Part shown: positions 1-53,847 of the stretch, piece by piece | How the letters are laid out: each line of letters starts with the position of its first letter | Numbering within the stretch: the stretch's first letter is position 1 | Translations under genes and position numbers: made by a program | Origin: Escherichia phage BF17 | Sequence record: MW822008.1 | Strand: one strand, 5' to 3' | DNA: 64,000 nt | The notes under the pieces: generated by a model | Seen by the model: the letters and a program-made list of their open reading frames with translations, nothing else | The model's database searches: none | What the model was told of the DNA's origin: nothing

Positions 1-2283
1 CCTGAAACGTCACCAGTTGCGACAACAGAAGATGCATTAATTACACCAAATGTACTTGGGTTAGTTGCACTAACTGATTTTGTTACTACATCAGCAGCAG
101 ACAAATCAATAGCACCAGTTACTGCAAGAGAACCACCCACAGTTACGTTACCAGTAGTTGTTAAAGAAGCAGCACTTACATCAGTAGTGCTTAAATCTAT
201 ACTACTCGGAGTTAGTGTTCCAGTAATAGTTACGTTATTAGCAAAAGTAGTGTCACCAGTAATACTTGGAACAGTTAGTGAAGCCATAGAACCAGCACCA
301 GTTACTGCAAGAGAACCACCAGATAGTGCACCAGCCGCAGTTACTGTATTACCAGATACAGACGCACCAGTAACATCACCAGTACTGGTTACTGAACTAG
401 CAGTTAGGCCAGCTAAAGTAGTGTCCCCAGCAACAGATAGTGTTGTTGTAACATCAACTTTATTTGGGGCGATATCAAGACCATCAACATCAGCTTGGGC
501 AGTTACACCAGTAGTTGTACCAGTTACTACTAAATCACGTACAGTTACAGTTTGACCAGTAACGCTAACATCACCACTGAAAGTACCTTTAGCAGCACTT
601 ACGTCACCAGTGAAGGTTGCAGCAGTACCAGTTAGTGCACCAACAACATTAGCTGTTCCACCAACTTGTAGGTTAGTTCCTACGGTGGTTTGACCAACAG
701 ATTCAAGGGTTTGTCCTTTGATTGCTTCAGCAGCAACAACAGATTTAGGAGTTAGGTCTTGACCACTTACATCAACTGTTAGGCCAGTTACAGTACCAGT
801 GAATTCAACATCATTTAGTACTGATTTACCAGCTACTTGTAGTTGTGGTGTTGCTGGACTTTGTGTACCATTACCAGTAATAGATAGATAATCTAGTTTG
901 TTTAGACCGTTACCTGTGATACCATAGGTTGCAAGAGATGCATCACCAAAGGTAGCAGTTTTTTGTACATTTAGTACTGCTGGAGATACTAGTTCAGACT
1001 GAATTTCATTTTGTAGAATTACAGTTGGACGAGCACCAGGGGCAGAATAAGCAAAACCATACTTAACGTTAGCATCGGCTGCGTTTTGTCCTAAACTTAC
1101 TGCTTTAAAATTAGCAGTACTATTAGCACCGGAAATATCAGCACCCAAAGTTACACCACCAACAAGGCTAGTTAATCCAGAAACAGTTAGAGTGTTTGCT
1201 TCAATATCATCAAGACTGAAAGTACCGCCGAGTGTACCAGATACGTTGATGTTATTAAAATTAGCAGTACCAGTACTTTCAATGTTAGGAATAGTTGCAG
1301 TTCCTGTTACTTCGAAATCATGAACTTTAGTTTTACCTGAAGTTACTTGTAATAGTGGAGTTGTTGGATCTTGAACAGAGTTACCAGATACTGTTAGGTA
1401 ATCTAGTTTGTTTAGACCATTACCAGTAATACCAAAAGTGGATAATGACGAATCACCAAAAGATGCAGTTTTCAATACACTTAGGGTAGCTGGAGACATC
1501 AATTCTGATTGGATTTCGTTCTGTAGAATTACAGTTGGACGAAGACTTGGAGCAGAATAGTTAAAGCTCAAACGGTAGTTAGTGTTTGCAGCATTGGAAC
1601 CAATTTTAATATCACGGAAGTTTGCACTACTATTCACACCAGTAATGTTGGAACCTAATGTAACACCACCTTGTAGACTGGTCAAACCAGAAACAGTTAG
1701 AGTTGTTGCATTAACATCAGATAGACTAAATGTTCCACCTAGTGTACCGGAAATATTCACATCTTTAAAGTTTGCAGTTCCAGTTGATGTAATATCAGTA
1801 GTTGCAGTGTTTGTGAATGTTGCATCAGTTGCAGTTATTGTGTCAAATGCTGCGGTAGTGCCAGTTTCAGCAGTAATGTTACCTTTAAATGAAGAAGTTC
1901 CAAGAACATCCATTGATGCCACTTGGGTATCTTTTAGTACAGCAGTGCCAGCGGTTTGTGTTAGGTTACCTGCCATTGATACTGGGCTTTGGAATTGTGC
2001 ATTAGAATTAATCGTTGCAGTATCAGAACCAACAGGTAAATTACCAATTACGGAATTACCATGAACTTCAATTCCACCATTCAATGATGCTTTACCAGCA
2101 ACATCTAGTGTAGATGAAATGTCTACAGTTTCTGCTTCAATTGCAGTGAATACAGCGTCAGCAAAAGTTACAGTTCCATTAACTGTTAGATTTTTATTGA
2201 ATACTGCATCGCCTTTCACAAGAAGATCTTTAGCAACCGTTGCACCACCAGTTATATCGAGATCTGTTTTAATCGAGTACATT
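1..2283 (-). CDS. Tail fiber protein, N-terminal ~760 aa only (gene runs off the window start)
   Basis: Minus-strand frame is open from ATG at 2281-2283 (RBS GGAGGG, tttggagggaactaaATG) to position 1; no complete minus ORF is listed here and plus ORFs 187-555 and 1582-2064 are antisense shadows. Translation MYSIKTDLDITGGATVAKD... is T/S/G/V/N-rich and beta-fiber-like with an internal ~165-aa duplication. Confidence 0.6.
836..1830 (-). repeat. Diverged tandem duplication (~2 x ~490 bp) inside the partial tail fiber gene
   Basis: Segments ~836-1330 and ~1347-1830 align at nucleotide level (shared runs such as taatctagtttgtttagacc, ttctgtagaattacagttggacg, ccagaaacagttagagt); encoded ~165-aa units are ~70% identical (TGTANF..NISGTLGGTFSL..TLTVSGLTSL..RPTVILQNEIQSEL..GITGNGLNKLDYL). 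Confidence 0.75.
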
Positions 2284-2358: not shown

Positions 2359-2402
2359 AAAAAATCCAGACTAGATGAATCATAGTCTGGACTATTTTTT
2401 TT
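2359..2402. terminator. Intrinsic terminator hairpin flanked by A- and T-tracts (can act on either strand)
   Basis: aaaaa-CCAGACTA-gatgaatca-TAGTCTGG-actatttttttt; lies between the 299-aa gene end (2401) and the start of the partial fiber gene. Confidence 0.6.
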
Positions 2403-3300
2403 ATTTACCGGAAATTACTATTTTACCACTAAACGCTTCGTCAGAAGTGAATGTAACATTACCACTTGCATCAATTTGAGTTTCGGTTATTACCAGTTCA
2501 AATGGTGATGCTGCTGTGCTGCCTGGAGTTTTATTTGAATAAATTGAAATATACAAATTATCAGGTGTTTGGTTATGTTCAGACGCGGGGATAGTAATGG
2601 TGTATTCATCACTAGATACTACCCAATCCGCTTGGTTAATTAATTTACTATAAGGTACTGTCATTGTTGTTGCTCCTATGATGTTGACTTTGACACTTGT
2701 ATAATCAGTGATTTGACCAATAACATCAATCGTAATGTCACCAATACCACTCACAGTGACGTTAGTTTGGAATACAGTGTCAAGTGGGATGTTACCAGGG
2801 TCACCCTGTAGCTGAACCATAATATCTGGTCCACGACCATGTACTGATTCAGGTAAAGAATAAGTATATTGATCTGTTGTTCCAGGAACTAATGTAAATG
2901 CCGATACAGGAACGATTTCAGTAGTAACGTAAGAACTATCAGTACCTGGAGTTGTGCTTTGGAGAGGTTTCCAAACACCAAGGTCTTTAATATAGATCTG
3001 AATAATATTAGTACTGTCAACTAAGAAGTAAGCGTCACCATCTACACCGATTGATTCAGATGGTGCAATAGTTCCACGTAAAATACCGGAACCGCCACCA
3101 CCACCGCTATGTGTATTCAAATAACCCAATGTAACCAAGTGTGTATTTGCGGTTGGGTCACCTGCTGAAACAGGAAGAAGTTGTGTACCCGTGTAGTTCT
3201 GGATTTGAACAACATTACCATTAGTGGCAATTTGTGCACCATTTTTACCAAGTATGAAGGTCTTCTTCATGGTTCCTTCTAAATTAGAAAAAACTGCCAT
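2401..3300 (-). CDS. Tail fiber/tailspike-like protein (299 aa) with the shared N-terminal module MAVFSNLEGTM
   Basis: ATG at 3298-3300 with RBS AAGGAGA; N-terminus identical to that of the next gene; Gly-run linker (HSGGGGGSG) then beta-rich C-terminal domain. Confidence 0.6.
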   Translation of the reverse strand: MAVFSNLEGTMKKTFILGKNGAQIATNGNVVQIQNYTGTQLLPVSAGDPTANTHLVTLGYLNTHSGGGGGSGILRGTIAPSESIGVDGDAYFLVDSTNIIQIYIKDLGVWKPLQSTTPGTDSSYVTTEIVPVSAFTLVPGTTDQYTYSLPESVHGRGPDIMVQLQGDPGNIPLDTVFQTNVTVSGIGDITIDVIGQITDYTSVKVNIIGATTMTVPYSKLINQADWVVSSDEYTITIPASEHNQTPDNLYISIYSNKTPGSTAASPFELVITETQIDASGNVTFTSDEAFSGKIVISGK

Positions 3301-3314
3301 TTTTATAATCTCCT

Positions 3315-5456
3315 TTAAGATAGGGTGATATATGTTATTGGTTGAGCAGCTTTCAATAATGCCCCTGCTGCGGTAGCAGTAACAATCGGATCGGCAATAT
3401 CGATACGATACGCATTATTAACAACATAAACTGCTCTAGTGATATATGTTTTTAAATCTTCGCCGTTTTCCCCTGCTCCTGTGATTAGGATTTCGGTTCC
3501 AGCAGCTTTAGCATATTGATTTTCACCCCATGATACACCCAATGCTTCGATATAAGTTTGTCCTGCAACTGTTTGTCTAATTGTGTCATATCGACCAAAG
3601 AAAGAACCACCTACTGTAACAATAAATTTTCCACCTGATTGTTTATGGATAATTGTTCCTTCTGGGAAATATCTCCCACCAGGAAAAACATCATAAGGCA
3701 CGTAATACTGTTCAACTACAGGTATTACTACAGGTCCACGATGACCCGTTCCATCAATTGCAGTGGTTACTTTAAAGTTATTAGATGATTGGTCAATACG
3801 GTCAACATACATTCTTGAGAAACTATATTTTGATATGTTACAATCATCTTGAACAACACAATTAGTCCAGTTGGTATATGTATATTTAGAGCGAGTATAT
3901 AAGCCCCCTCCTTCACCTTCAGTTGCAAGGTGTTGTCCAATAACATCAAGTTCTTTAGTACTGATATTATTAAACTTGGAAGATGACGGCAATCCACGCC
4001 ATTGAATTCTACTACATGTAATATTAGAAAGTTCAGTAGTATTTAGCCAATTATCAGAGCCTGATGTATGCACAATAATAGACGACTCAGGAATGTGGAG
4101 ATTACATAATTTAAAGTTACGTGGAGGACCAGCAAATTTACCAGATGTTACACCCCAGTTAATAGAAACCATACGGTTAGTTACTGATGGATCATTTAAT
4201 AGATGTCCAGATAGGCCATCAATAATAAAATCAACAGAACCATAAGTAATTACACCAGCGGTTGTCAAACCAGTACCAATTGATACCAATGTCGATGGAT
4301 AAACTTCATTATTAAGAATTTTAAAGTCTTTACCCAATTCAACGTGAATACATTGACGAACATTGTATAAGCGGTTATTTTTTATAACGAATTTTTTTAC
4401 ATATTGTGAATCATCTGCATTCACATCATAAGGACCAGAACCAGCAACGCCGATACCAATACCCCAGTTTGAAAGAGGAATTGGTGCATCTGTACCATCT
4501 ACGTTTTCAATCAAGTTACCTTCTATTACAAAACCGTCTGGGTAATGTGAGTTGACTACGTTCAATTCAATTGCATCACCATATATATCATGGATGTGGT
4601 TGTATGAATAACGCCCAACTGTCATTTTCTCACCAGTGCCTTGCTGAAGAACACCGTACTTACATTGTGTCATTTCATTAAAGCAGAAGTCGATAGTACC
4701 TGATTCAGTCATACCTTGCATTAGAAATGCAGCAGTACTTGTAATATTAATAAATTTATTAAAATAAAATTTACCATTACCACCAAAGAATTTTAAATAA
4801 CATCCTGTTAATGTTGCTTGTTGGATTGTACTATTCAGTACTGATACCATTGTTCCACCGTTACCAGTGATTGTTCCACCAAACCATTGAATATCATTCA
4901 AATAAACAGCAGTTCTGATACGATAATTACCACCAGCTTGAATTTGGATTTGGTGTTCTTTTGCATAAACTGCACATGCGTTAACCGCCGCCGTGTCATC
5001 AGTGATGCCATCACCTTTTGCACCAAACTCTTCTGGAGTTATGTAAAACTGTGCCTGTTGGAGTGTTCCTCCAGTAATAAGTCCGATATAATCAGCACCG
5101 TTAACACTGGAAAGGACATTTTTATTAATGTATAATGATTTTACCCAAACATCATTTGTTTTTGCAAAGATATCAACAATACCCTCAGAATCAACTTGAA
5201 AATAAGTGTTGTTATTTTTACCAATGTCATTTGTTGGTGGAAGCACGCCAAATAAAGCATTTGGGTTATCTTCAAGATACCTAACGTTTACTGCGGAATC
5301 ATCGTCATTAGGAGTTCCCACCTTAACAGGTAGGAACGTTTCGCCTAAAAAGTCTTTGATTGCGACAGAATCGTTTACAAAATTAATAGAAGCACCACGT
5401 TTACCCAACTTAAATGTTGGCATCATGGTTCCTTCTAAATTGGAAAAAACTGCCAT
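3315..5456 (-). CDS. Tailspike protein with right-handed beta-helix / pectate-lyase-like domain (putative polysaccharide depolymerase), 713 aa
   Basis: ATG at 5454-5456 with RBS GAGGG; N-terminal MAVFSNLEGTM module; motif EEFGAKGDGITDDTAAV is the classic signature of pectate-lyase-fold tailspikes. Confidence 0.65.
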   Translation of the reverse strand: MAVFSNLEGTMMPTFKLGKRGASINFVNDSVAIKDFLGETFLPVKVGTPNDDDSAVNVRYLEDNPNALFGVLPPTNDIGKNNNTYFQVDSEGIVDIFAKTNDVWVKSLYINKNVLSSVNGADYIGLITGGTLQQAQFYITPEEFGAKGDGITDDTAAVNACAVYAKEHQIQIQAGGNYRIRTAVYLNDIQWFGGTITGNGGTMVSVLNSTIQQATLTGCYLKFFGGNGKFYFNKFINITSTAAFLMQGMTESGTIDFCFNEMTQCKYGVLQQGTGEKMTVGRYSYNHIHDIYGDAIELNVVNSHYPDGFVIEGNLIENVDGTDAPIPLSNWGIGIGVAGSGPYDVNADDSQYVKKFVIKNNRLYNVRQCIHVELGKDFKILNNEVYPSTLVSIGTGLTTAGVITYGSVDFIIDGLSGHLLNDPSVTNRMVSINWGVTSGKFAGPPRNFKLCNLHIPESSIIVHTSGSDNWLNTTELSNITCSRIQWRGLPSSSKFNNISTKELDVIGQHLATEGEGGGLYTRSKYTYTNWTNCVVQDDCNISKYSFSRMYVDRIDQSSNNFKVTTAIDGTGHRGPVVIPVVEQYYVPYDVFPGGRYFPEGTIIHKQSGGKFIVTVGGSFFGRYDTIRQTVAGQTYIEALGVSWGENQYAKAAGTEILITGAGENGEDLKTYITRAVYVVNNAYRIDIADPIVTATAAGALLKAAQPITYITLS

Positions 5457-5470
5457 TTATCAACCCTCTT

Positions 5471-6598
5471 TTAAATGTTATCTTGAATAGGCTGAATAGG
5501 TGCTTGCCATGATAAAGTACAAACGATCTTCATTTCACCAAATGAACTGTTGTTTACGGAATCATTGAATACACAAGAAATGATTTCATCTTTACTTGAC
5601 ACTTCATGGTTGGTTTCGTTAACAATGTAACGCATTTTGCGGTTGATATCGAAATAATCAACAGGTGCAATTACAGTACCACCAATATCTTCTTGTGCTT
5701 CACCACCGAAACGTACAAACATTTCACTTACTGGTTCATCATATGCTTGGTTAATATCAACTTCGATATTAGTTACTAGGTATCCAGCAGGGCATGTACC
5801 AATAACTAACAATGCGTTGGTCCATGAATGATCAATAGTGTTGATGATAACAACTGTATCTTTACCTGGTTCACCCTGAATACCTGGTTCACCTTGCTTA
5901 CCTTCTTCACCGTCTTTTCCACGGAATAAGATGCCAGCACTCCACTCTTTAGTTGGGGTGGATGATGTAGTTACGATATCAACATAATACAAATTACCAT
6001 CAGTAGTGTTATAGAAGCAATAATCTTGTGGTAGATTATCAATGCTTGGGAATTGACTACCAGTACTATCAATGTGGAAACGACCACGTAGACCCTGTTC
6101 ACCACGGAAAGGAACACCATCACTCCATGTTGCAGTTACGCTTTGATAGAAATATAATTTACCATCTTCAGTATTATAGAAGGTATAGTTATTGACGAGG
6201 CCAGTTGTTGGAAACACAGTACCGGAACTGTCAATGTGGAATGGTTTACCAGCTTCACCAGTATCACCTTTACCAAACTCTACACGGTTCCAAGTACTAA
6301 TTGTTTCTTGTGCATCGTTTGATTTAAAATATAAAGTACTAGTGCCGTTTGCAAGACTAAGATAACACCACCCTAGTTCTTCACCAACACGGAAGAGTTC
6401 ATTAGGAACTTCAAAACCTATCTCATTTGGATAAAAGTTTCTACCGTTAGCACCATTTTGTCCAACCACTAGACCTAAGTCTTGGATTGTATTGTCGGAA
6501 TAGGTTACAATTAAATGTCCAGCAGCGTTAATAACTAAACTTTTGATGCCAGAATTATTACATGAACCACCTGACCCATTGTTGAATGAAATTGTCAT
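5471..6598 (-). CDS. Collagen-like repeat tail fiber protein (~375 aa; ORF track start 6634 is less likely)
   Basis: ATG at 6596-6598 is preceded by RBS AAGGGAAA, whereas the 6634 ATG has none; G-x-y triplet runs (GKDGEEGKQGEPGIQGEPGKD, GDTGEAGKP, GEQGLRG). Confidence 0.55.
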   Translation of the reverse strand: MTISFNNGSGGSCNNSGIKSLVINAAGHLIVTYSDNTIQDLGLVVGQNGANGRNFYPNEIGFEVPNELFRVGEELGWCYLSLANGTSTLYFKSNDAQETISTWNRVEFGKGDTGEAGKPFHIDSSGTVFPTTGLVNNYTFYNTEDGKLYFYQSVTATWSDGVPFRGEQGLRGRFHIDSTGSQFPSIDNLPQDYCFYNTTDGNLYYVDIVTTSSTPTKEWSAGILFRGKDGEEGKQGEPGIQGEPGKDTVVIINTIDHSWTNALLVIGTCPAGYLVTNIEVDINQAYDEPVSEMFVRFGGEAQEDIGGTVIAPVDYFDINRKMRYIVNETNHEVSSKDEIISCVFNDSVNNSSFGEMKIVCTLSWQAPIQPIQDNI

Positions 6599-6662
6599 AA
6601 TATTTCCCTTGTATGAGTTAATGTCATATACCAATATTTATCAGTACAAAATACATTTCGTT

Positions 6663-6707: not shown

Positions 6708-7205
6708 ATGGCATTAAGATCAAAAGACTTCCTCTTCAAAAGAAAAACTAAAGATGGTTCATGGCAAGAATTTCCTGAATCAGATAGCTGGTATCCTGCT
6801 AACTTAGATTATCATTGGAACGAACAAACATTACCATTAGCTAGTGGCGGCTATTATGGTAGTACTACAGGATTACATACAATATCCTTTACCCTACGTA
6901 ACTTCATTGGTAGAATTTACGTACTCGCTACACTGGCAAGTAATCCATCTGACGATGATTGGTTCCCAATTAAATTTACCGAAAGCTGCAACTTCTATCT
7001 TGAATTTACTGATAATGTCATTCTTAACCCAAATGGTGGTGACCTTATTAGAGAACAAGGTACAACTGGTACATTCGCTGAAACCTTAACCGGAAACTTT
7101 ACCTATCTGAAAGTTGGTATTGACCGTGATTACATTAGCAAGTATCCATCTGATGTACAAAAAAGTTTAGCTGGTAAGTTAGAACAAATTTTAATTAACT
7201 ACTAA
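6708..7205 (+). CDS. Hypothetical protein (165 aa)
   Basis: Intact ORF with RBS-like aaaaggg upstream; first gene of a three-gene plus-strand operon that diverges from the fiber genes. Confidence 0.5.
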   Translation: MALRSKDFLFKRKTKDGSWQEFPESDSWYPANLDYHWNEQTLPLASGGYYGSTTGLHTISFTLRNFIGRIYVLATLASNPSDDDWFPIKFTESCNFYLEFTDNVILNPNGGDLIREQGTTGTFAETLTGNFTYLKVGIDRDYISKYPSDVQKSLAGKLEQILINY

Positions 7206-7214
7206 GGATTAGAA

Positions 7215-7823
7215 ATGAAATTAGAAACAGAACAACCAAAACTATTTGTTAAGGGTCATGTACTAATTACTGACGTTACTGATCCATCTAACCAAAAAAT
7301 CGTTTTGGATAAATCAAACGCAATTCACCCTGAAAATATGAGTACTGCTATTGCTAATGCGTTGGCTTATAATCAAGATAGTACTGGTATTCCTATTGGA
7401 TCTATTAGTGAGATGCGTTTTGGTAATGGTGGAACAGTAGTTTTGAGTACTGGTCGTATCACATACAAGAAACCACGCGTTACTTCTTTCGGTGGTCTAT
7501 ATTCTCAGACTTATCTGAAAAAAATCAACCCACGTATCTCTGCTGGTATTGATTCACAATATAACAACATTACAACTGTTCACATTCCAGGCCAAGCTTA
7601 CACTGATATTGTCTGTATTTGTACATTAGGTTTAGGTGAGCCATCTGACCAAGGTGTTAGCTCTGGTACTAGCATGGATGGGACATATGTATTTGACGAA
7701 TTGGGTTTATATACAAATGGTGATAGTGGTATTCCACTTACCCATATCATTTTTCACCCAGTTGAGAAAAGTGCTAACCGTGTTTTGCAAATCAAATACA
7801 CAGTTCGTGTCCAACTACAATAA
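7215..7823 (+). CDS. Hypothetical protein (202 aa), likely virion-associated
   Basis: RBS AAGGA 7 nt upstream; tightly packed between neighbours. Confidence 0.5.
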   Translation: MKLETEQPKLFVKGHVLITDVTDPSNQKIVLDKSNAIHPENMSTAIANALAYNQDSTGIPIGSISEMRFGNGGTVVLSTGRITYKKPRVTSFGGLYSQTYLKKINPRISAGIDSQYNNITTVHIPGQAYTDIVCICTLGLGEPSDQGVSSGTSMDGTYVFDELGLYTNGDSGIPLTHIIFHPVEKSANRVLQIKYTVRVQLQ

Positions 7824-7835
7824 TAAGGTGATGAT

Positions 7836-8936
7836 ATGAGTGTAAGTTATACAATTTATAGAAGTAATGGTAGCGTTTATGCTACCATTCCAAATAACGT
7901 AATATTAGGACCAAACCAACCTGGTAGTAACCCAGTACCGTTAAACTTTGCAGGTAGAAATAAAGTTGGTTACGGGCAAGCATGGAACGAAAACTTCCTC
8001 CACTTGGTTGAGAACTTCAGTGGGGCTACTGCACCTCGTGGTAACGTTAATGGTCAGATTTGGTACAGAAATACTGGCAACACTGGTGAACTACTTCTTG
8101 CATTAGTTGATAATGCTCGTCAACCAGTAGATACTGCATCTGAAGCTGACTGGGCATCTATCCCAATGATTTCAATTTTCAACACAGTACCAGATGGTGA
8201 AAATAGTATTATGGGTCGTATGGTTCTTACCAGCAATGGTGATTCCCTTCGTGTCCTAATGAAAAATAAAGAATGGCGTGAAATTCAAACATCTCGTCCT
8301 GAAAATAAAGAATACTCCACACTACTTGATATCAACTATGATACAGGTAAGAAATACATTGAATTTACACAAAGTAACAGTACTAAGCCATTAGCTTACT
8401 TCAATATGGGTGGCACTTCACAGGTTGATTCAAATAACTGGACAACATTCACAAATGGTACTGGGGTGTTTGAATTTGGTAGTAACTATTTTTATGAATT
8501 GAAAATTATGATTCGTGAAGTTAGTGATTCATCAGGTGAAATTGTTTCTCTTCCGTATAATTCAAAAACATTTTTCATTAAAGGTCAGTTCTATGTTGAT
8601 AACCAAGGTACATTTGTTCCTGGTTCAATTGGTGCAAGTCAGATTCCAGACCCACGTCGCATTACACAACTAGAATCAATCAAGGATGTAATTACCAGTA
8701 GTCGCCCTAATTGGGATGTATCTATGGTAATTAATGGTGTTGACCCAACTCTCCCAAATCCGAATGGTATTACAAAAGCGGATTACGAAAACTGGGTGGT
8801 TAACTCTCTTAACTCTAATAAAAACTTAGGGTTCCGCGTCGATGGTATAGTAAACAACCTTTCGGCGGGTGAGTCAGTTAAGCTTCAAGCATCTGTCCTA
8901 CTTAATATAACAGGTATCCCACTGATTGGGGTATAA
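7836..8936 (+). CDS. Hypothetical protein (366 aa), likely virion-associated
   Basis: RBS AAGGTGA upstream; followed by a terminator. Confidence 0.5.
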   Translation: MSVSYTIYRSNGSVYATIPNNVILGPNQPGSNPVPLNFAGRNKVGYGQAWNENFLHLVENFSGATAPRGNVNGQIWYRNTGNTGELLLALVDNARQPVDTASEADWASIPMISIFNTVPDGENSIMGRMVLTSNGDSLRVLMKNKEWREIQTSRPENKEYSTLLDINYDTGKKYIEFTQSNSTKPLAYFNMGGTSQVDSNNWTTFTNGTGVFEFGSNYFYELKIMIREVSDSSGEIVSLPYNSKTFFIKGQFYVDNQGTFVPGSIGASQIPDPRRITQLESIKDVITSSRPNWDVSMVINGVDPTLPNPNGITKADYENWVVNSLNSNKNLGFRVDGIVNNLSAGESVKLQASVLLNITGIPLIGV

Positions 8937-52221: not shown

Positions 52222-53847
52222 ATGAGCATAAGTTTTAATAACCCACTGGATACTATGACTAGTACTGGTGCTAATGGATCTTTAGAACTAATAGTGCTTG
52301 GTGGTACACCAACTAATCCAAGACCTATTCGTTTTAATTCATCTTCTGTCATTTTACCAGTACAGGCATTGCCAGCAGGTGAGCAAGGTGCTATGGTATT
52401 TGATAGAAATGAGTTGGTGTTAAAATACCACAACGGGACAAGTTGGATTGCAGTATACGATACTGATACAATTCTTGAACCAATCCGTATTTCACTCGAT
52501 GAAGTGAACCGTAAACTGAATTTAAAAGTTGAAACAGTAACATATAGTAGTAGTGCTGTTCCAAGTGCGAGCATTAGTGGTACGAATTTAAATATCGTAT
52601 TCCCTACTCCATCAAGTAGCGGTAGTGGCCCAACAGGTCTTTACACTTCAATGAAGCCTGGTGCAATTACCCAGTACTCATTGACTTCTGGACAAACTGT
52701 TGCTAGTATTCGTGAACAGATGTCTGGAGTAACTAATGGTCAAAGTGGTCGTAATGGTACACAAGGTTCTCCGTGGAAAACTTCTGATGGTTGGTGTTTT
52801 GCTGATGGAATGTGGTGGCAATGGGTTGGTGAAAATGGTACAATCACTAAACAAGTTCCAAATCTTAACCAAGAAGCATACTTGAAAGGCATTACCACAT
52901 CAGGCGTAACTAAAACTGATAGTGTGATTGCAAGTAGTGCATCAATTAGTGGTACTGCGATATCAATTGCTCAACTTCCACCGCACTCATTTAGTTTCAG
53001 TGGAACTACTGGTGCTGCTGGTCGTCATGGTCATAGCCAAGCACTAAAAGGTATGGACAGAAGTGGTCTTAATGCGTTAACATCCAGTAACGACAACGGA
53101 ATCCCAACTGTAATTAATAACATTAACGAAGCACCTGATCACGTGCATAGTTTCAGTGGTTCTACGAATACTGTTGGTAGTGGTCAAGCACACAGCCACG
53201 GAATTAGCAATATTGACGTACCACACTTTAATGTGGCATACTTATATAACATTGCTGAGTCTAACGTTGCATTGAGTGAAAAAGTTGCAAACACCCGTTA
53301 TGTACTGAAAACTGGTGATACAATGTCTGGTTCATTGACTATTGCTAACAGTGCAACAATTCGTTCGAATGATACTTCATTAGTACTTTACTTCCGTAAC
53401 GCTACTAATGGTGAACGTGCAGCAATTTATCATAATTCATCTAACAATACATTACGTTTGAGAAGTAATGGTGGTTCTGAAGTTACAATTAACTCTTCTG
53501 GTGTACTTTATGCTCCATCAGTAACTGGTGCATCATTGTCTATTTCTGGAAACACAGCAACTGTTGCAAGTAAAAACATCGTCAGATCTATTAACGGTAA
53601 CAACGCTGATGCAAACGGTAACGTAACTTTAACACTGGGTGCTGTACAAGATGTTCGTTTAAGTAAAAGAACATCTACGCGAAGTGTTCCTGATTCTTCT
53701 TGGATCTATGCACCAGAAGGTGCTACGCTTGATGGGTTGTTTATTTCCGTAAATGGGAGTTCTGGTACACACGTTGAAGGTTATAGTTGGAGATATACAC
53801 AAAAATTAGTCAATGGTGTATGGACTAACGTAGTAGTGGAGTCTTAA
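52222..53847 (+). CDS. Tail fiber protein with His-x-His repeat region (541 aa)
   Basis: Repeats HSFSFSGTTGAAGRHGHSQA and HVHSFSGSTNTVGSGQAHSHG resemble HxH repeats of T-even fiber tips; beta-rich composition; RBS AAAGGGA. Confidence 0.6.
   Translation: MSISFNNPLDTMTSTGANGSLELIVLGGTPTNPRPIRFNSSSVILPVQALPAGEQGAMVFDRNELVLKYHNGTSWIAVYDTDTILEPIRISLDEVNRKLNLKVETVTYSSSAVPSASISGTNLNIVFPTPSSSGSGPTGLYTSMKPGAITQYSLTSGQTVASIREQMSGVTNGQSGRNGTQGSPWKTSDGWCFADGMWWQWVGENGTITKQVPNLNQEAYLKGITTSGVTKTDSVIASSASISGTAISIAQLPPHSFSFSGTTGAAGRHGHSQALKGMDRSGLNALTSSNDNGIPTVINNINEAPDHVHSFSGSTNTVGSGQAHSHGISNIDVPHFNVAYLYNIAESNVALSEKVANTRYVLKTGDTMSGSLTIANSATIRSNDTSLVLYFRNATNGERAAIYHNSSNNTLRLRSNGGSEVTINSSGVLYAPSVTGASLSISGNTATVASKNIVRSINGNNADANGNVTLTLGAVQDVRLSKRTSTRSVPDSSWIYAPEGATLDGLFISVNGSSGTHVEGYSWRYTQKLVNGVWTNVVVES

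Follow-up and report, generated by a model that had tools for sequence, protein, structure and literature searches.

Two neighbouring genes on the minus strand of a 64,000-nt stretch of Escherichia phage BF17 (MW822008.1; hereafter the window) encode a 713-aa protein (A) and a 299-aa protein (B) that open with the same eleven amino acids, MAVFSNLEGTM. By alignment, this 11-mer is the best-conserved tip of a homologous N-terminal domain of ~105 aa. In the reading we prefer, to which we give a probability of about 0.7, the domain is a virion-attachment anchor, and A is a colanidase fused to it. Over the 3.4-kb region at this locus, identity is 99.6% with Escherichia phage Turkey3 and 97-99% with several further jumbo coliphages of the genus Asteriusvirus, but ~80% with 121Q and PBECO4; the source is an Asteriusvirus (121Q/PBECO4-like) jumbo coliphage.

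The 33-nt stretches encoding the 11-mer (5424-5456 in A and 3268-3300 in B) are identical at 32 of 33 nt, and the one difference (TCC versus TCT) is synonymous. An earlier note on this DNA had described both open reading frames, the near-identical starts and the single mismatch, all of which we confirm. When up to three mismatches are allowed, these are the only two copies of the motif in the window, with none in 100 shuffles. The earlier note also had the proteins diverging completely after residue 11; instead, the homology runs on to residues ~104-110, with B 1-110 aligned to A 1-104 by BLASTP (41% identity, E 7e-20). At the DNA level, the direct repeat is 83 nt long (77% identity, 2156 nt spacing) and takes in the stop codon and ribosome-binding site upstream of each gene as well as the coding sequence up to codon 21. 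A hidden Markov model (HMM) search of the six-frame translation found no other copy of the module in the window (next best E > 1).

It had been allowed beforehand that the repeat might be an artefact, a duplicated leader or ribosome-binding site of 33 untranslated nt, with the real starts at the Met at position 11. Codon 11 is indeed ATG in both genes and has a purine-rich GAAGGA before it, but that hexamer lies merely 3 nt from the Met11 ATG. Each first ATG is directly preceded by the stop codon of the upstream gene and by a proper Shine-Dalgarno sequence, at a distance of 7 nt in A and 9 nt in B. Among 13 paralogs and orthologs, the counts of variable sites within the 33 nt are 3/0/7 for codon positions 1/2/3, and codon 11 is Leu (TTG) in the B gene of phage A4 and Phe in homologs that are BNR-repeat fibres. 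An exhaustive HMM search (1.84 billion representatives, 192 hits) placed the motif at position 1 or a few residues from it in ~30 divergent cluster representatives, which likewise argues against a Met11 start. Given the Shine-Dalgarno spacing, the substitution pattern and the Leu or Phe at position 11, we reject an internal start at Met11; we consider the leader-artefact reading effectively refuted on these grounds, with a negligible chance of being right, and take the 11-mer to be translated. Starts at the first ATG predict the N-terminal tryptic peptides AVFSNLEGTMK (B) and AVFSNLEGTMMPTFK (A).

Beyond the shared domain, A resembles a characterised enzyme. Residues 96-712 match the structure of phi92 gp150 end to end (PDB 6E0V, E 4e-233; also 6E0W; PHROG 6117), and phrog_6117 ('colanic acid degradation') covers residues 94-711 (E 2e-252). 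The pectate-lyase-type motif that had been noticed in A is thus present, though it understates the likeness. In other contigs, the same-length product at A's position carries a precomputed Pfam assignment to PF27800 (WcaM). A is ~57-63% identical to gp150, and its tblastn identity to phi92-like phages is ~57%. Phi92 gp150 is reported to be a colanic-acid hydrolase (PMC13450770), and A probably hydrolyses colanic acid as well. Such 'colanidase tailspikes' occur in Justusliebigvirus, Vequintavirinae and several podoviruses.

The N-terminus of A does not belong to that family. The first ~92 positions of the phrog_6117 profile have no counterpart in A, the match opening at profile position 93 and residue 94, and gp150-type N-termini are unrelated to A's first ~95 residues, which carry the Rak2-like anchor common to B. 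A tblastn search of A against 50,697 phage records returned 255 matching records. Among the 40 of these that were listed, a match from residue 1 is confined to Asteriusviruses; alignments with phi92-like phages begin at residue 96, and those with the other non-Asteriusviruses at 113-115 or later. Because of this pattern, we place the junction at ~95-105, and A is, by its sequence, a chimera of an anchor (residue 1 to ~95-105) and a gp150-type colanidase.

Some natural variants have lost the distal part of A. JP4 (L016 3001-3606) and one E. coli-associated contig (protein P0001) encode a 201-aa in-frame derivative of the colanidase that keeps residues 1-150 (anchor and neck) and the last ~50 residues, with the entire catalytic body gone. 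The enzyme part therefore appears to be dispensable for an isolated phage, with the anchor kept. Separately, phage vB_Ec-M-J has its colanidase annotated as two adjacent coding sequences (L001 12245-13327 and 13332-14387), both named 'colanidase tailspike', implying a frameshift, a stop or a sequencing error; the copy in the window is intact.

B is a different kind of protein. Its full length (residues 1-299) matches phrog_10468 ('virion structural protein', E 2e-92), and Pfam returned no family and no beta-helix hit for it. Its AlphaFold2 (AF2) model has the anchor and two beta-sandwich domains and lacks the right-handed parallel beta-helix body of a beta-helix tailspike. Mass spectrometry of CBB virions recovered 5 peptides of the ortholog in that phage, CBB_227, which cover 32% of the protein (PMC5259590). 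The locus had been described as holding two tailspike genes; just A qualifies, and B, to judge by its model, is not a tailspike. Its full-length profile match and conserved position are those of a Rak2-like virion structural protein.

The gene order around B is common to GAP32, CBB, Munch, EJP2 and RaK2: a gp15-like tail sheath stabiliser, a NUDIX gene, three divergent structural genes, the collagen-like gene, B and a gp34-like long fibre gene. B's position, from the collagen-like gene to the gp34-like fibre gene, is kept in 121Q, Turkey5, A4, EJP2, GAP32, CBB and Munch. In RaK2, the gene at B's position (ORF061w; L005 6001-6348) encodes a 115-aa N-domain alone, beside which we did not see the gp34-like fibre gene; this suggests that the anchor domain by itself is a retained virion component. 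GAP32, CBB, Munch, EJP2 and RaK2 all have the B gene and no colanidase gene at the slot, and genomes with two anchor genes are limited to the 121Q-type Asteriusviruses and the relatives of these from Salmonella. Because of this distribution, the colanidase gene is best explained as an insertion limited to the 121Q-type lineage, directly upstream of B. Across the sequenced Asteriusviruses, the slot always holds the colanidase (62-99% identity), except for the 201-aa derivatives described above. The suggestion that this place is a hotspot for host-range swapping does not hold among the sequenced relatives, in which the slot contains the same colanidase (121Q-type) or is empty (EJP2, GAP32, CBB, Munch, RaK2).

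The exhaustive search also separated the anchor into two parts. Profile positions 1 to ~65-72 match the N-termini of highly diverse proteins of 94-1366 aa. These include B-type proteins of ~290 aa, the A4-type colanidase, several small proteins, a 780-aa beta-helix spike with a Peptidase_S74 chaperone domain (P0022), a 705-aa beta-helix spike (P0023), and six BNR-repeat (propeller) fibres of 1204-1366 aa. Profile positions ~65-113 have many matches inside long phage fibre proteins, because of which the anchor from residue ~65 onward is read as a single copy of a common ~45-aa fibre repeat. A single metagenomic contig of 120 kb encodes both P0022 and P0023, with three fibre-like genes between them, and by tblastn they have only residues 1-64 in common with A and B.

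The portable part thus delimited opens with a flexible arm, M-A-[VI]-F-S-N-[LF]-x-G-T-[MFL]. After this come a small beta-sheet and a helix motif, 'P-x4-[DH]-A-V-x2-Y-L', whose kind is common in trimeric phage fibres. Its first ~11 residues are the most conserved segment, whatever the distal domain. The AF2 model of the 65-aa module has a predicted local distance difference test (pLDDT) score of 79.8, lowest in residues 1-10; residues 1-11 are the least confident part, with pLDDT 33 in the full-length B model and 56 in the module model. These values would fit an arm that is ordered only within a complex.

One metagenomic lineage offers a direct case of distal-domain exchange behind this anchor. 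The spike genes of contig L011 and of L033, an IMG/VR relative, both stand directly after nrdD/nrdG. The 684-aa protein that occupies the slot in L033 (1172-3226) is 66% identical to P0022 (L011 8001-10343) over the first ~100 aa, and the remaining ~600 aa are unrelated. The idea of a shared anchor with interchangeable tips is therefore sound as far as a conserved N-domain on many proteins with unrelated distal parts is concerned; the module is not 11 aa long, as had been thought, but ~105 aa where A and B share it and ~64 aa where it is portable.

Database families say little about the module. In 17 of 23 cases, N-modules match phrog_4302 at positions ~4-63, and PHROG 10468 and PHROG 4302 (function not assigned), which match B and the N-modules, name the anchor without explaining it. 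Pfam gave no hit on the N-terminus of A or B, and structural searches with the models detected no homolog of the anchor. We rejected PF27114 ('Phage_tail_beta') as the anchor family: it is listed for the metagenomic spikes, where it probably covers a different region, and is not recorded for B or the same-length A homolog in other contigs. We found no account of the shared N-terminus in publications on Asteriusvirus, RaK2, CBB, phAPEC6 and JP4. Our verdict is that the anchor family is undescribed and the modular design of the receptor-binding proteins ordinary.

We propose the following account of the locus. The anchor would consist of the ~64-aa portable module plus one ~45-aa fibre repeat, and B would be the ancestral resident, sited between the collagen-like and gp34-like fibre genes. 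In the 121Q/PBECO4-type lineage, a colanidase gene would have been inserted just upstream of B. Its enzyme (from residue ~96 on), a type that many coliphages have, the phi92-like ones included, would have been joined to a copy of the anchor that replaced the donor's own N-terminus. The N-terminal arm and the small sheet would dock on a site in the tail or fibre apparatus, and the Y-L/V-D helix motif and the fibre repeat would lead to the distal part, probably a trimer. As their anchor is the same, A and B would sit on one kind of docking site, either on equivalent sites in parallel or in competition. The virion would in this way gain a cutter of colanic-acid slime without a new attachment site. 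The relationships among the sequences, the chimeric junction, the synteny and the modular distribution of the anchor are observed directly; we infer trimerisation, docking through the N-terminal arm and the presence of A in the virion.

Four points weigh against this account. Over residues 1-64, A is ~47% identical to B (a hand count on the BLASTP alignment) and 48% identical to P0023, so that A's anchor may equally have been copied from resident B or have come with a foreign spike. Neither A nor B is listed in the virion proteome table of phAPEC6. (The GenBank record of that phage, MK817115, has no coding sequence for the colanidase or the 299-aa homolog at L010 3987-7192, and its numbering skips from gp253 to gp256.) A search for a docking partner by co-occurrence, with 26 window proteins compared by tblastn to 22 kb of the unrelated two-spike phage and to a BNR-fibre contig, recovered the N-module only. 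Lastly, the first 11 codons show more conservation at synonymous sites than would be predicted from selection on the amino acids alone, an excess that the anchor leaves unexplained.

This last point could be understood in two other ways. Where A and B have the same residue, they also share its codon in 8 of 9 non-Met cases among the first 11 codons, but in 16 of 33 cases over the remaining domain; under window codon usage, P(>=8 of 9) is ~0.005. Together with the presence of the copies as direct repeats 2156 nt apart in one genome, this might point to gene conversion, with a short patch of one paralog recently overwritten by that of its neighbour. The same 33 nt, however, are present without any change in the B genes of 121Q, Turkey5, GAP32, CBB and other, metagenomic relatives; some of these phages lack a colanidase gene that could take part in conversion, and the A genes of different clades look like independent small departures from the 33-nt consensus (1, 1, 3 and 4 differences). 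Because the B genes agree across relatives in this way, the near-identity is better read as ancient conservation, and recent conversion between A and B seems highly improbable.

The other possibility is that the nucleotides have a function besides the protein role, as a constraint on translation initiation or as a small hairpin over codons 3-10, which would account for the excess synonymous conservation. Over all pairs, the same codon is used in 79% of cases in the first 11 codons and in 50% in the remaining N-domain, and GGA (15%) and ACC (14%), although rare codons, are kept in different genera. A 10-bp stem, GUUUUUUCUA/UAGAAGGAAC, can form, and the lineage L025/L041 has two double changes that preserve its pairing. 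Against this, 84.6% of cells are paired among 24 distinct sequences compared to 83.0% in shuffles, with slid controls equal or higher; half of the distinct sequences leave two of the stem pairs open; the folding energy is no better than that of shuffles (z -0.49 and 0.0); and most synonymous sites vary in the wider data set. We regard an added nucleotide function as unlikely, and the RNA hairpin over codons 3-10 as unsupported, with z ~0 and covariation no better than in slid controls.

A further alternative concerns the peptide itself, which could be a transient signal, either a tag that a fibre-assembly chaperone recognises or a propeptide cleaved off as the virion matures. As such a signal might be, the first ~11 residues are disordered in the models and are the most conserved, independent of the distal domain. 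Conservation nevertheless continues past the peptide into the folded 64-aa module, and the stand-alone 115-aa N-domain of RaK2 fits a structural role better than it does a tag. As to a propeptide, the motif departs from the cleavage patterns of T4-type and phiKZ-type prohead proteases, N-L-E having the wrong P3 residue. We consider a transient signal very unlikely and return to the anchor.

Attachment by a conserved N-domain is well known. Tailspikes of the P22, Sf6 and HK620 type combine a conserved N-terminal particle-binding domain of ~110 aa with unrelated receptor-binding domains. The logic here is the same, with a conserved N-domain of ~100 aa, a sharp loss of similarity at its boundary and exchangeable enzymatic tips, and the conserved domain is found in front of unrelated distal domains in different proteins. 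By analogy with P22, the N-domain would bind the virion; CBB_227 is found in virions, and natural truncations keep the N-domain. Homology to the P22 head-binding domain was not detected, either as a Pfam hit on the two N-termini or as a structural match. In a similar manner, the second receptor-binding proteins of KP32/KP34-like Klebsiella podoviruses (through a short N-terminal docking peptide) and the adaptor-mounted spikes of K1-5 and SP6 are depolymerases that plug into a common site. We compare these by concept alone, and the module here differs in being folded, ~64 aa long and part of a myovirus.

The likeness does not extend to branched complexes. CBA120 (TSP1-4), G7C and RaK2 (gp526-534) have branched complexes of several receptor-binding proteins that are assembled by N-terminal domains (PMC10253068). 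RaK2 belongs to the same jumbo-phage group as the phage studied here and has its branched-fibre genes elsewhere in the genome. In those systems, distinct N-domains dock to each other (T4 gp10-like XD domains, D1/D2 domains or a dedicated anchor on one protein), whereas A and B have the same anchor, and neither a T4 gp10-like (XD) nor a D1/D2 domain was detected in their N-terminal regions. The earlier note had taken the shared N-terminus as a hallmark of a branched, multi-spike machine. An identical anchor rather suggests parallel or competing attachment than hierarchical docking.

As the design principle has long been known for phage tailspikes, the finding is incremental. It explains how a jumbo coliphage would have gained a slime-degrading enzyme, by fusion to the anchor of a resident virion protein, and it delimits a compact anchor of ~64 aa (~105 aa in this phage). 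The junctions (~95-105 here, ~64 elsewhere) could be used for engineering receptor-binding proteins in Rak2-like phages, and the docking site of the anchor is a target for structural work. A broader proposal, which we put forward tentatively and think doubtful, is that the ~64-aa M-A-x-F-S-N-x-x-G-T module is an undescribed, widespread and universal 'plug' by which large myoviruses (the Rak2-like jumbo phages and at least one metagenomic lineage unrelated to them) mount their receptor-binding proteins, with the disordered first 10-13 residues as docking strand and the conserved 5' nucleotides as a recombination or translation-control element easing cassette exchange. If that were so, a defined adaptor of 64 aa would allow the rational exchange of distal domains in jumbo phages.

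Table 1. Features of the anchor locus, with positions in the window.
Feature	Position	Strand	Remarks
A, 713-aa colanidase tailspike gene	3315-5456	minus	ORF confirmed
B, 299-aa structural protein gene	2401-3300	minus	ORF confirmed
First 11 codons of A, MAVFSNLEGTM; repeat copy 1 (33 nt)	5424..5456	minus	
First 11 codons of B, MAVFSNLEGTM; repeat copy 2, single synonymous mismatch	3268..3300	minus	
A, portable N-module, aa 1-64	5265..5456	minus	Module HMM E 2e-24; tblastn to metagenomic spikes ends at aa 64
A, aa 65-104, single ~45-aa fibre-repeat unit; homology with B ends here	5145..5264	minus	
A, putative colanidase part, aa 96-713 + stop, phi92 gp150 homolog, PHROG 6117	3315..5171	minus	
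B, portable N-module, aa 1-64	3109..3300	minus	Module HMM E 5e-30
B, aa 65-110, Gly-rich linker and fibre-repeat unit	2971..3108	minus	
B, C-terminal part, aa 125-299 + stop, two modelled beta-sandwich domains, without beta-helix	2401..2928	minus	
Shine-Dalgarno-like GAGGG, 7 nt before A's first ATG	5464..5468	minus	Sequence reading
Stop codon of the gene preceding A	5471-5473	minus	Sequence reading
Shine-Dalgarno-like AGGAG, 9 nt before B's first ATG	3310..3314	minus	Sequence reading
Stop codon of A	3315-3317	minus	Sequence reading
Terminator-like hairpin CCAGACTA...TAGTCTGG followed by a T run, ending the three-gene unit	2359..2390	minus	Sequence reading
375-aa collagen-like 'tail protein' gene, phrog_13565	5471..6598	minus	Neighbour kept in all Rak2-like phages examined

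The features of the locus are collected in Table 1. Three minus-strand genes follow each other with 14-nt gaps, for the collagen-like protein (375 aa), A and B. The terminator-like hairpin behind them was not reported by a consensus scanner, its loop apparently being above the scanner's 8-nt limit. Phage G17 has a 'terminator' annotated somewhere under its 3.4-kb match to the region.

The start of the collagen-like gene differs between sources: the mechanical list of open reading frames has TTG at 6634 (387 aa), and the gene calls of other contigs have ATG at 6598 (375 aa, MTISFNNGSGG...). The protein contains internal repeats of ~50 aa, of the same general type as the fibre repeat of the anchor domain. 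The window had been credited with at least five receptor-binding candidates. This was checked in part; the collagen-like protein, the gp34-like fibre and a 541-aa protein at 52222 do match phage tail or tail-fibre families.

In every Rak2-like phage examined, the locus is adjoined by three divergent genes (165, 202 and 366 aa; plus strand, 6708-8936 in the window). Their products have no function in PHROG or Pfam; the CBB orthologs of all three are annotated as structural, and two of these, CBB_230 and CBB_231, are in the mass-spectrometry table of CBB virions (PMC5259590). The three proteins are candidate docking partners for the anchor.

The two long fibre genes that come next (1638 aa and ~1900 aa; window 1-2282 minus and L013 7019-11935, then 12085 onward) have a different N-terminus in common, MYSIKTDLD[IV][TS]G...V.KDLLVKG. 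N-termini resembling 'DL.V.G' also occur in fibre genes beside N-module spikes on the unrelated contigs L011 and L012, and the MYSIKTDLD-type N-terminus may be a second class of anchor in the same apparatus.

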